Origin: Escherichia phage PhaxI
Reading direction: 5' to 3' (one strand)
Sequence record: JN673056
DNA length: 64,000 nucleotides
Shown here: positions 7,181 to 13,929 of the stretch, piece by piece
Layout: each line of letters opens with the position of its first letter
Position numbering within the stretch: position 1 is the stretch's first letter
Program-made: the position numbers and the translations under genes
The notes under the pieces: generated by a model
Seen by the model: only the letters and a program-made list of their open reading frames with translations
Database searches by the model: none
Told to the model about the DNA's origin: nothing

Positions 7181-7372
7181 ATGCTACGTTGCAAAAGAGG
7201 TTCCAACTCCTTTAAGTTAGGCATGCTGACTGGAGTAACGTTCATGATTGCTTTAGACAGCCTTGTGGGACTGCTTTCCCTTCCTGATTTTAGGATGGAA
7301 CGATTCATATTGTTAGTTCTATTTGGCGGCGTCTCTATTATCTGTACCCTGAAAGCATATAAAAAGATTTGA
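7181..7372 (+). CDS. small hydrophobic (membrane) protein
   Basis: 63-aa ORF with two hydrophobic stretches; RBS GGAGGTGA 5 nt upstream of ATG. Confidence 0.5.
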   Translation: MLRCKRGSNSFKLGMLTGVTFMIALDSLVGLLSLPDFRMERFILLVLFGGVSIICTLKAYKKI

Positions 7373-7412: not shown

Positions 7413-7898
7413 ATGCTCCCATTACTCAATGTTCCAAAAGAACGTATGACGCCGGATAGTGAAGGCAAGACACATTACAACATATACAGTCGAAGCCGCA
7501 CCGAACTAGGCAGATTCCTTTCCCATTTTGCATACCATCCCATGGATACTGTTGATGGTAATTTCAACTCAATAGAAAGCTACTGGTATTGGCTAAAATA
7601 TCGCCACGACGACTTGCGTAGTCTTTATGGGAACGACGCCAAGCAATTTGGACAAACCCTGGCCAAGTCACGCATCGTTGTATTGTCCCCTGATGATCCC
7701 AAATTTAAACGAGACATTATCGCAGCAACGAGTCAAAAATTGCTGACAATGCCATCCAAGTTGAGATTCCAATTGGCCCATAGCCGTCTCCCCCTGATTC
7801 ACGCTTATGAACATCAGGGGAAATACAGTTTTCAAAACTCTATGGATTTTATCATACAGCATATTAACCGCTTCCGTCTAGAAGGATATTTGAAATGA
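7413..7898 (+). CDS. NADAR (YbiA/DUF1768)-like protein
   Basis: Segment HYNIYSRSRTELGRFLSHFAYHP...DGNFNSIESYWYWLKY matches the N-terminal signature of YbiA/NADAR proteins (FYS...G.FSNF..P...DG...SEHYFQA.K); the C-terminal NADAR motif was not recognised; the track ORF uses a TTG at 7398, first ATG is 7413. Confidence 0.4.
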   Translation: MLPLLNVPKERMTPDSEGKTHYNIYSRSRTELGRFLSHFAYHPMDTVDGNFNSIESYWYWLKYRHDDLRSLYGNDAKQFGQTLAKSRIVVLSPDDPKFKRDIIAATSQKLLTMPSKLRFQLAHSRLPLIHAYEHQGKYSFQNSMDFIIQHINRFRLEGYLK

Positions 7899-8473
7899 AT
7901 TTTCTAAAAACTATCTTCAACACATCATATGAACTCAGCCAGCGCGATCCTAATCGTTCTCCTGTGTTTGTATATTGCAAACTCGTGGAAGAGTCTTGTG
8001 AACTATCAGATGTGCTTTATGGAATCGCTGCATCCGAACCCCTGAACGGTGAAGTGGCGGACGTTATCATCTCGGCTCTGGATCTATTATATGTTGTGGA
8101 TTATCAACAAGTTCAACAACATGGGTCTATGACCAAAGAAGAAATCTTTGACTCCATGTTGTTTGCTTTGGCTACAGCCAATCACACAACTGATCTCAGC
8201 CAACATACGTTGGAGGATTATTGGTTCTGCAGTGGTGTTGAAACTATAGACAAATATCTTGCGATGGTTAATCATTACAAAGGCCGCATCACTCGTTTAC
8301 TGAACCAACCTCAACGTTCAGAAGATAATATGGTGGACCTGGTTTCAAATCTGATACGCAATACTGCCAAATTGGCGTGTGGATATAATCAAAACCATAT
8401 CAACACGATCGTTAAAGTGGAACATGCCATAGAACACAAAGTGGAAAAATGGCGCACTAAATTTGGTCTATAA
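7895..8473 (+). CDS. MazG-like all-alpha NTP pyrophosphohydrolase
   Basis: Motifs LVEESCELSDVL and EVADVIISALDLLYVV resemble the EExxE and E..D helices of MazG/dimeric dUTPase-type NTP-PPases. Confidence 0.4.
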   Translation: MNFLKTIFNTSYELSQRDPNRSPVFVYCKLVEESCELSDVLYGIAASEPLNGEVADVIISALDLLYVVDYQQVQQHGSMTKEEIFDSMLFALATANHTTDLSQHTLEDYWFCSGVETIDKYLAMVNHYKGRITRLLNQPQRSEDNMVDLVSNLIRNTAKLACGYNQNHINTIVKVEHAIEHKVEKWRTKFGL

Positions 8474-11812: not shown

Positions 11813-12091
11813 ATGTTTGTATATTTCCGCAGTCTCTCATTGCTGACTTTCTTCTATTGGTTGTTCGATATCTTATGCCCTCGTTTTATTAAAGAGGAAG
11901 TTGCTTTCGTCAACCATGAAGGCCAACAAGATTTATGGATACCTCTTTGCGCTCTTTCTGATGTAACCGAATGGGATGAAGTGGGTATGGTTGGCACCAT
12001 GCGTTCATTTAATTTGTTTGGATTTGCATTATTCCCTAAGTTAATTGGAGAATTACGCCCATACAATCCTGATGAAGAAGTGGAGGCGTGA
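11813..12091 (+). CDS. hypothetical protein
   Basis: 92-aa ORF; preceded by hairpin GGAGGG...CCCTCC at about 11774-11792. Confidence 0.4.
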   Translation: MFVYFRSLSLLTFFYWLFDILCPRFIKEEVAFVNHEGQQDLWIPLCALSDVTEWDEVGMVGTMRSFNLFGFALFPKLIGELRPYNPDEEVEA

Positions 12092-12092
12092 T

Positions 12093-12398
12093 ATGTCAAA
12101 ATTATTGACTCCAAAATTATTATCAATGGGTGGTTCCATATATTTTCATTGTCCTGGATGTAATATGCTTCATCCTTATCGCATTTCAGGGCAAATGCCT
12201 GGCCCAATATGGCAATGGAATCACGATCTCGAATCACCGACTTTCACTCCTAGTCTGTTGGTGAATCATTCTCATCCGGCGAGTCGTTGTCATTTGTTCT
12301 TGACTGATGGTAAATTACAATTCCTTGGTGACTGTTTCCACGAATTAAAGAATCAAACGGTGGAGATGGTTGATATCCCCGAACTGAAATATGGATAG
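12093..12398 (+). CDS. hypothetical zinc-ribbon protein
   Basis: ATG at 12093 after GGAGGCGTGAT; CPGC...H and C.H cysteine/histidine clusters. Confidence 0.45.
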   Translation: MSKLLTPKLLSMGGSIYFHCPGCNMLHPYRISGQMPGPIWQWNHDLESPTFTPSLLVNHSHPASRCHLFLTDGKLQFLGDCFHELKNQTVEMVDIPELKYG

Positions 12399-13094: not shown

Positions 13095-13327
13095 ACGAGT
13101 TATATGAATTTGAACGCGTGTATGAGTCCGCTTCAGTTTCAGGATACATGAAACGATTATATCAAGAAATCTGTGTTCGTTTGATAATGCGAGGAATATC
13201 TGTCAATTGTGTTATGGCACAGACAGACAGTTTTATTATGACACTCACTGACCATCGCCAGAATATGTGTATCATCCAGGTTAGCTGTGTCAACAACGAA
13301 ATTATACAATGGAGACGTTACGCATGA
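13091..13327 (+). CDS. hypothetical protein
   Basis: 78-aa ORF; ATGA start/stop overlaps with neighbours. Confidence 0.4.
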   Translation: MNELYEFERVYESASVSGYMKRLYQEICVRLIMRGISVNCVMAQTDSFIMTLTDHRQNMCIIQVSCVNNEIIQWRRYA

Positions 13328-13929
13328 CCACATATGTTATCACAAACGGCGATTTACTGAAAGCCGCTACGAGTTTTAATCTCATCAATGCTTTCGCTCA
13401 TGGCGCAGATTGTTGGTCTGTGATGGGCGCAGGTATCGCCAACCATGTTCGATTAGATTTCCCAGAAATTTACCGAGCCGACCAATTAGATGAACGTGGT
13501 CCGGAACAACGTTTGGGGAACATGTCCTATGCGTTTGATCATGACACTGGTGTCTGGGGATTCAATTTGTATACTCAGTTCTACCCTGGTCCTAACGCAC
13601 GCATGCCTTCCATTATCAGTTCAGTTCAGATTATGTTTGAACAAGTTCACGATATCATTGAGGCAAAAACTGACGAAACAGTCTATGTTGGTTTACCCGC
13701 CATCGGCTGTGGCATCGGTGGATTAAAACTGTTTCACGTGGTGAGTCAGATTAATAAAATCGCGGAGACTATCTTCGAAGATTCCAGGCGTCGTGTCGTA
13801 CCCGTCTTTTATATCCGACAGGGTGACGGGTTTGAACAAGATTTACAAGAACTTTCCCAGATGGTGGACTACGGAATCTCTGTCGTAGCTAGTGAAGAAG
13901 ATATCATCGAAGAGGAAGGTATTGGATGA
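13324..13929 (+). CDS. Macro domain protein (TARG1/OARD1-like ADP-ribose hydrolase fold)
   Basis: Start ATG at 13324 overlapping the upstream stop (ATGA); motif HGADCWSVMGAGIANHV...FP resembles the TARG1/DarG-type macrodomain signature (C..MGAGIA); second glycine-rich motif LPAIGCGIGGL. Confidence 0.55.
   Translation: MTTYVITNGDLLKAATSFNLINAFAHGADCWSVMGAGIANHVRLDFPEIYRADQLDERGPEQRLGNMSYAFDHDTGVWGFNLYTQFYPGPNARMPSIISSVQIMFEQVHDIIEAKTDETVYVGLPAIGCGIGGLKLFHVVSQINKIAETIFEDSRRRVVPVFYIRQGDGFEQDLQELSQMVDYGISVVASEEDIIEEEGIG

Follow-up and report, generated by a model that had tools for sequence, protein, structure and literature searches.

A divergent NADAR-fold protein of Ackermannviridae phages is a predicted relative of the T4 anti-DarT factor AdfN

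An open reading frame (ORF) in a 64,000-nucleotide stretch of DNA from Escherichia phage PhaxI (JN673056; the whole stretch is referred to here as the window, and the product of this ORF as the window protein) very probably encodes a NADAR-fold enzyme that acts on an ADP-ribosyl linkage. The window protein would be a free-standing, highly divergent phage-type NADAR ADP-ribosyl N-glycohydrolase, distantly related to T4 gp30.3/AdfN (anti-DarT factor NADAR; PF08010 Phage_30_3), which belongs to the family that Schuller et al. (2023) termed 'phage NADAR'. With modest confidence, we favour the full proposal based on this homology, in which the substrate would be DNA carrying guanine-linked ADP-ribose (guanine-ADPr) and the protein would counter DarTG1 as AdfN does. 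Coordinates are listed in Table 1.

The ORF begins with an ATG at 7413 and ends with a TGA at 7896-7898. Use of an in-frame TTG (7398) as the start would lengthen the product by 5 aa; homologues, though, begin at the ATG. The window is a Kuttervirus (Ackermannviridae) segment that shows 99% identity with the Salmonella phages SPTD1 and PhiSH19, and coordinates counted from rIIA match. Full-length homologues were found in 527 phage records, with identities from 99% down to about 30%; these are mostly Ackermannviridae of Salmonella, Escherichia, Klebsiella, Dickeya, Erwinia, Serratia and Vibrio, and jumbo phages and Pseudomonas phages of about 95 kb also encode a homologue (27-40% identity). The family is also present in 221 IMG/VR loci and amounts to 1599 representatives of 50%-identity clusters (E ≤ 1e-3). 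This full-length conservation across phage records, IMG/VR loci and cluster representatives indicates that the ORF is a real gene. Since a member was found in just 18 of the 185,579 species representatives of cellular genomes, the family is essentially a phage gene family.

The cellular copies include those on two Pseudomonas megaplasmids of about 1 Mb (P. serbica and P. fluorescens) and one on the P. nitroreducens chromosome, and several of the 18 loci classed as genomic resemble phage or prophage DNA. Families encoded next to these 18 copies are, among others, TerD, NYN, Macro, DUF488-N3a and, once, a 5-hmdU DNA kinase (HMUD2). The gene is annotated as hypothetical in every Kuttervirus record inspected. 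The homologue of Klebsiella phage FKP10 (PP974338.1, 129984-130466; 94% identical) carries the label 'virion structural protein'; according to Iyer et al., NADAR proteins are frequently packaged into the virions of myoviruses. A second NADAR was looked for in the 64-kb window and none was found.

The original prediction had described a YbiA/NADAR-like ORF on the strength of two motifs, and these, FLSHFAYHP (residues 35-43) and DGNFNSIESYWYWLKY (residues 48-63), are present at the sites that it quoted. Simpler methods did not recover the relationship. A Pfam scan of the window protein gave no match to PF08719 (NADAR) even at E ≤ 10 and none to PF08010 (gp30.3), Pfam annotation was absent from all 28 close database relatives, and pairwise BLAST of the window protein against T4 AdfN or E. 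coli YbiA was not significant. Searches of the PDB with phmmer, and with a profile built from 12 sequences, returned chance matches only (endolysin, IgA protease, thioredoxin). The Pfam and NCBIfam scans of the window protein yielded only a sub-threshold match to MrpR_N_CB, which was likewise taken as chance.

The relationship was recovered when families were compared. We aligned 175 domain sequences, with the window protein as the first, and used hhalign to compare this alignment with those of two accepted NADAR families, T4 gp30.3/AdfN and YbiA. Over residues 19-159, the match to the AdfN family had a probability of 97.9% (E 3.3e-13) and that to the YbiA family one of 96.8% (E 2.3e-10), which bears out the initial assignment of the ORF. 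As a control, the AdfN and YbiA families were compared with each other (97.5%, E 6.9e-12), and the scores of the window family are on par with this value. When a 75-sequence family profile was used in an hmmsearch against 177,635 PDB sequences, only two matches were obtained at E ≤ 10, both to NADARs: PnNADAR (8bau, 5.3e-4) and YbiA (2b3w, 1.5e-3). T4 AdfN/gp30.3 (9e-51) and the window protein (5e-55) fall in the same PHROG family, phrog_652; a local AdfN HMM gave the window protein 13.8 bits only.

Some relatives link the family to NADAR models. P0028, the most distant first-round relative (41% identical), matches Pfam NADAR at 6e-4 and TIGR02464 at 1.7e-5 and was named 'YbiA (DUF1768 family)' by JGI; its Pfam NADAR score is 20.5 bits, against a cut-off of 35.1, and it alone among the 12 aligned relatives scores that high. 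The homologous domain of P0102 matches the Pfam gp30.3 model PF08010 at 4e-6, which is below the cut-off. In BFVD, the best matches are uncharacterised members of the window protein's own family, and beyond it the matches at E ≤ 1e-3 that carry a name are to phage and giant-virus proteins labelled 'NADAR domain-containing', with the sole exception of one DUF7831 protein from an uncultured phage.

The predicted structure agrees with these matches. An AlphaFold2 model built from the 75-sequence alignment (pLDDT 96.7, pTM 0.90), which replaced an earlier model from 12 sequences (pLDDT 76.5), shows five core helices and two beta-hairpins, the NADAR fold as published; a Foldseek search of the PDB with the 12-sequence model returned YbiA alone (E 0.011). 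By profile-profile and fold comparison, the resemblance to NADARs far exceeds chance.

Table 1. Coordinates of the features discussed in the text (positions of the window)
Feature	Position	Strand	Remarks
63-aa ORF with two hydrophobic stretches	7181-7372	+	lies in the 278-bp gap that precedes the NADAR gene
NADAR-like ORF	7413..7898	+	161 aa + stop; = PhiSH19 gp008 and SPTD1 ORF246, both labelled 'hypothetical protein'
FLSHF motif, residues 35-39	7515..7529	+	counterpart of NADAR [F/L]SNF
Glu55 codon GAA	7575..7577	+	175/175; aligns with AdfN E36, PnNADAR E43, E. coli C7 NADAR E88
Ser56 codon AGC	7578..7580	+	window-specific; in the family G 158, A 16, S 1 of 175
Lys62 codon (Glu+7)	7596..7598	+	aligns with AdfN K43, PnNADAR K50, E. 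coli C7 NADAR K95
K77-Q-F-G80, part of the A-K-x-x-G-[R/K/Q] motif	7641..7652	+	from the alignment with PnNADAR; PMC11543638
His130 codon CAC	7800..7802	+	172/175; aligns with AdfN H123 (108/108), PnNADAR E125, C7 D171
MazG-like pyrophosphatase ORF	7895..8473	+	phrog_1247; no Pfam match; ATG overlaps the NADAR stop (ATGA)
DUF6527 ORF	12045-12398	+	Pfam E 2e-13; hypothetical in PhiSH19
DarG-like macrodomain ORF	13309..13929	+	T4 Tk.4 (AdfM) homologue; 5.4 kb downstream of the NADAR ORF, same strand

The residues that matter most for catalysis in characterised NADARs are present. E55 and K62 align without gaps with the NADAR catalytic Glu and Lys, the former corresponding to the catalytic Glu established for AdfN, PnNADAR and E. 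coli C7 NADAR (PMC11543638; PMC11257639). In AdfN, the mutations E36A and K43A abolish counter-defence, and E. coli C7 NADAR requires E88, K95 and D171. The third position is occupied by H130, and a His that replaces the Glu/Asp of other NADARs is a hallmark of phage NADARs (PMC11543638; PMC11825919; PMC12945103). The residues essential in AdfN and DarG1 are present in the window protein as Glu55, Lys62 and His130, plus Lys77. Conserved catalytic residues had been named beforehand as a test of the original prediction, and E55, K62 and H130 match AdfN E36, K43 and H123. K77 corresponds to K75 of PnNADAR and K115 of C7 and is kept in 170 of the 175 family members, and G80, the counterpart of PnNADAR G78, is kept in 171.

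Other positions depart from the characterised enzymes. Q81 stands where PnNADAR has the pyrophosphate-binding R79 (PMC11543638), a position at which most family members have R or K; the counterpart of PnNADAR R93 is F98, and the glycine-motif region containing D130/W133 is replaced. At the Asn of the SNF motif, 143 of the 175 members have N and 32 have H, with His marking the Ackermannviridae clade. The Glu+7 position is K or R in only 38 of the 175, mainly in this same clade, so the family as a whole may bind its substrate in a manner unlike AdfN. At position 56, Gly is found in PhiSH19, in SPTD1 and in each near-identical IMG/VR relative that was checked; Ser56 could reflect variation specific to this strain, an error in sequencing or a change in function. 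Variation is tolerated directly after the Glu, where YbiA has H, PnNADAR has Q and AdfN has G.

The C-terminal part lacks the usual glycine motif, as had been predicted: the alignment confirmed that the 'YWGDGG' motif of YbiA is absent and that HAYEHQGKYS stands in place of EHTENDAYWGDGG. The accompanying suggestion that the protein could be divergent or truncated was upheld in its first half only. The model and the alignments span the entire NADAR domain, which rules out a C-terminal truncation, and the same motif is missing from the experimentally active AdfN; the protein is thus divergent, not truncated.

The comparison with known systems places the window protein closest to AdfN. Both belong to phrog_652, are of the same size and consist of a free-standing core NADAR domain with the Glu, the Lys at Glu+7 and the phage-specific His; both are encoded by large myoviruses with modified DNA that also encode a macrodomain of the Tk.4/AdfM type. 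AdfN shows a preference for T-even DNA. They differ in that neither a pairwise comparison nor PF08010 connects them, that the helix after the Glu reads EGYWYWL in the window protein and EGFLQxLK in AdfN, and that the window protein has an additional conserved N-terminal block, DGxxHINxYSxGxTxLGR. Moreover, most members of the wider clade of the window protein, unlike AdfN, do not have the Lys, and SLOG, Macro or DUF4326 domains are frequent fusion partners in it.

E. coli YbiA (2b3w; PF08719) differs in several respects: the identity is 15%, the YbiA-defining Glu (in VEH) is His in the window protein, and a short beta-hairpin replaces ENDxYWGDGG. YbiA is also chromosomal, in a LexA-controlled operon (PMC11125620), whereas the window gene is phage-borne. 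In contrast to the antitoxins of the DarG1/BC4488 type (G. lovleyi 8bat, E. coli C7), the window ORF has no adjacent DarT1, and its product has His at the site of the catalytic Asp (C7 D171); compared with DarG1, it does not have the N-terminal helix and beta-sheet extension that form an electropositive DNA channel (PMC12945103).

The second enzyme of the proposed pair is encoded by the ORF at 13.3 kb, which had also been predicted to be a macrodomain. A Pfam scan of this ORF gave nothing at E ≤ 0.01, and the Macro model misses it. Its product shows 37% identity to T4 Tk.4 (E 5e-18), both fall in phrog_335, and a sequence search of the PDB matched it to nothing but three macrodomain proteins: the DarG macrodomains of M. 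tuberculosis (5m3i) and T. aquaticus (5m31) (PMC5179494), and 7omu, a 'Macro domain-containing protein'. These matches support the macrodomain assignment. Tk.4 was recently named AdfM, an anti-DarTG2 factor of T4 (bioRxiv 10.1101/2025.11.20.689424). By sequence, this Kuttervirus encodes homologues of both T4 anti-DarT enzymes, AdfN and AdfM. The idea of a two-enzyme anti-ADP-ribosylation toolkit put forward earlier, with an AdfN-type NADAR and an AdfM-type macrodomain, holds by homology, since the 13.3-kb ORF is homologous to Tk.4/AdfM. PHROG and RefSeq label the family of this ORF 'phosphatase', and 2387 phage records contain it.

According to the proposal, the ADP-ribose moiety would be bound in the helical cleft of the window protein, and the N-glycosidic bond between the distal ribose and the guanine N2 would be hydrolysed. 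In this way, ADP-ribose placed on replicating phage DNA by DarT1-type toxins would be removed and a DarTG1-like abortive-infection defence neutralised. The AdfM-like macrodomain would play the same role for the thymidine-linked ADP-ribose produced by DarT2, and the pair would mirror AdfN and AdfM of T4. All the NADAR subfamilies assayed so far hydrolyse guanine-ADPr (PMC11125620; PMC12945103). The isoelectric point of the window protein (9.6, versus 9.0 for AdfN and 9.4 for YbiA) does not discriminate between DNA and a small molecule as the substrate. Among the papers searched, none mentions DarTG together with Ackermannviridae, Kuttervirus, Vi01 or Det7.

In the window, the gene order is a histone-like gene, the NADAR ORF, the MazG-like gene and the topoisomerase II genes, and the surrounding DNA-metabolism genes (rIIA/B, topoisomerase II, dCMP deaminase) are also found in T4. 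The ATGA overlap suggests that the NADAR and MazG-like ORFs are translationally coupled. Pseudomonas phage Amme-3 has a MazG-like gene 1.5 kb from its homologue. The 63-aa ORF upstream, which is annotated in SPTD1 (ORF247) and not in PhiSH19, may encode a small membrane protein.

The main challenge to guanine-ADPr DNA as the substrate comes from the more distant relatives. Multidomain NADAR-SLOG-Macro-DUF4326 proteins are known from jumbo phages and giant viruses (Iyer et al. 2021, 2022), and in the fusions of this kind retrieved here, such as P0030, P0153, P0102 and proteins of two Erwinia phages, RAY and AH06, the NADAR-like domain is of the window protein's sequence family. The partner domains in 56 multidomain relatives are DUF4326 (11), YAcAr SLOG (9), DprA-like SLOG (7), Macro (6), DUF488-N3a (5) and YpsA SLOG (2), in addition to exoribonuclease domains and a metallophosphatase. 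The metagenomic protein P0102 (1415 aa) has a canonical Pfam NADAR domain at residues 10-143, a divergent NADAR-like domain at 548-694 and DUF4326 at 1185-1274, and the presence of both NADAR types in one protein suggests that they are not redundant in specificity. Erwinia phage AH06 encodes a fusion of the domain with a DprA-like one, and the fusion gene lies two genes downstream of one for an 'ADP-ribose binding protein', 13 bp past the intervening gene. A DprA-like protein is encoded within 3 kb of the homologue in Pseudomonas phage Amme-3, and an ADP-ribosylglycohydrolase (ARH) 3 kb from that of Serratia phage BF. The neighbours of family members on viral contigs include DUF4326, Macro, ARH and cREC, although their occurrence is sporadic. 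No ADP-ribosyltransferase (ART) was found near family members among the 25 commonest neighbour families listed for each of two scans, one of the 18 cellular loci and one of about 40 viral loci; this is a weak negative.

Iyer et al. described combinations of NADAR, SLOG, Macro and DUF4326 and made the case that soluble ADPr derivatives are the substrates of most phage NADARs (PMC9503650). The window protein could likewise be a NADAR-fold hydrolase that in the cell acts not on DNA but on some soluble derivative of ADP-ribose, such as a toxic metabolite of ADPr or a TIR- or SLOG-associated immune signal (a cADPR isomer, or ADPr linked to a base or an amino acid), which would be degraded or salvaged in several steps together with Macro, SLOG and rhodanese-phosphatase (DUF4326, DUF488-N3a) modules. 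The fusions to SLOG, Macro, DUF4326 and DUF488-N3a, the similar neighbours in AH06, Amme-3, BF and viral contigs, the loss of the Glu+7 Lys in most of the family and the coexistence of the canonical and divergent domains in P0102 are all consistent with this. We consider such a substrate rather unlikely, but the fusions of the relatives and the absence of the Lys in most of them make it a serious alternative. Against it, the window protein is free-standing and keeps the full AdfN-type set of Glu, Lys and His, and the fusions are confined to distant relatives (30-45% identity), not Ackermannviridae; in Kuttervirus, the protein has a single domain, and the macrodomain and the MazG-like protein, its possible partners, are separate genes. 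In addition, every NADAR assayed acts on guanine-ADPr in nucleic acids, and cleavage of a soluble immune signal is so far not known for any NADAR.

The same observations allow, tentatively, for a separate and mostly phage-borne NADAR clade, characterised by the EGYWYWL motif, an active-site His and the predominant loss of the Lys, whose ADP-ribosyl substrate would be other than DarT1-modified guanine. Such a substrate may be ADPr carried by hypermodified DNA, or else a soluble immune signal or toxin from a defence of the TIR, SLOG or ART type. If this were the case, the clade would represent an uncharacterised enzymatic route that erases ADPr-based immunity, acting in series with Macro, SLOG and rhodanese-phosphatase modules.

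It is distinctly improbable that the protein removes ADP-ribose from another nucleic-acid target, whether guanine-ADPr in RNA, cytidine-ADPr or marks left by toxins other than DarT1, such as pierisin/ScARP-like or YarT-like ARTs. All four described NADAR families clear guanine-ADPr from RNA and DNA and some clear cytidine-ADPr (PMC12945103), NADARs of the YbiA type partner with the non-DarT ART YarT, and the subfamilies differ strongly in their specificity in vivo despite a common activity in vitro (PMC11125620). However, neither the window nor the neighbour families listed offer a contextual link to an ART or an RNA-repair gene, and the cytidine-ADPr activity is tied to the Glu (PMC12945103) that is His in the window protein.

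The protein could instead be an N-glycosidase of the YbiA kind with nucleotide or cofactor intermediates as substrates, either in pool sanitation with the MazG-like protein or in the thymidine hypermodification of the phage. We regard this as highly improbable: the hallmark Glu is His and YWGDGG is absent, the match to the AdfN profile is stronger than that to YbiA, nucleotide-metabolism genes are common beside any early gene of large phages, and outside Ackermannviridae just one phage showed the adjacency to MazG, and that loosely. The unique substitution beside the catalytic Glu, the change of SNF to SHF and the several non-conserved ADPr-contact residues of PnNADAR speak for a NADAR fold that is impaired in catalysis or not an enzyme, either because it serves to bind or sequester a ligand or because G56S has inactivated it in this isolate. 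This is extremely improbable given the natural variation after the Glu and the near-invariance of Glu55 and His130 across 175 diverse sequences, as would be expected if they form an active site.

The AdfN-like reading, in which the window protein would remove ADP-ribose from guanine in phage DNA, extends a known type of phage counter-defence to a new phage family, with an activity that is predicted from sequence. NADAR counter-defence in phages is already established (Nat Commun 2025), and NADAR-SLOG fusions are already known from computational description. The Pfam NADAR model misses this large clade (1599 cluster representatives; 527 records of phages; 221 loci in IMG/VR), and phage NADARs are thus undercounted wherever a survey relied on Pfam or BLAST. 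The loss of an 'essential' Lys in the clade, together with its fusions, makes it a good place to seek new NADAR substrate specificities.

Ackermannviridae phages are widely used in the biocontrol and detection of Salmonella and E. coli. A 2024 review of the family makes no mention of ADP-ribosylation or anti-defence genes. With the present assignment, a core Ackermannviridae gene gains a testable function, and the combination of an AdfN-type NADAR with an AdfM-type macrodomain predicts that these phages would be intrinsically armed against DarTG1 and DarTG2, which bears on the engineering of their host range.
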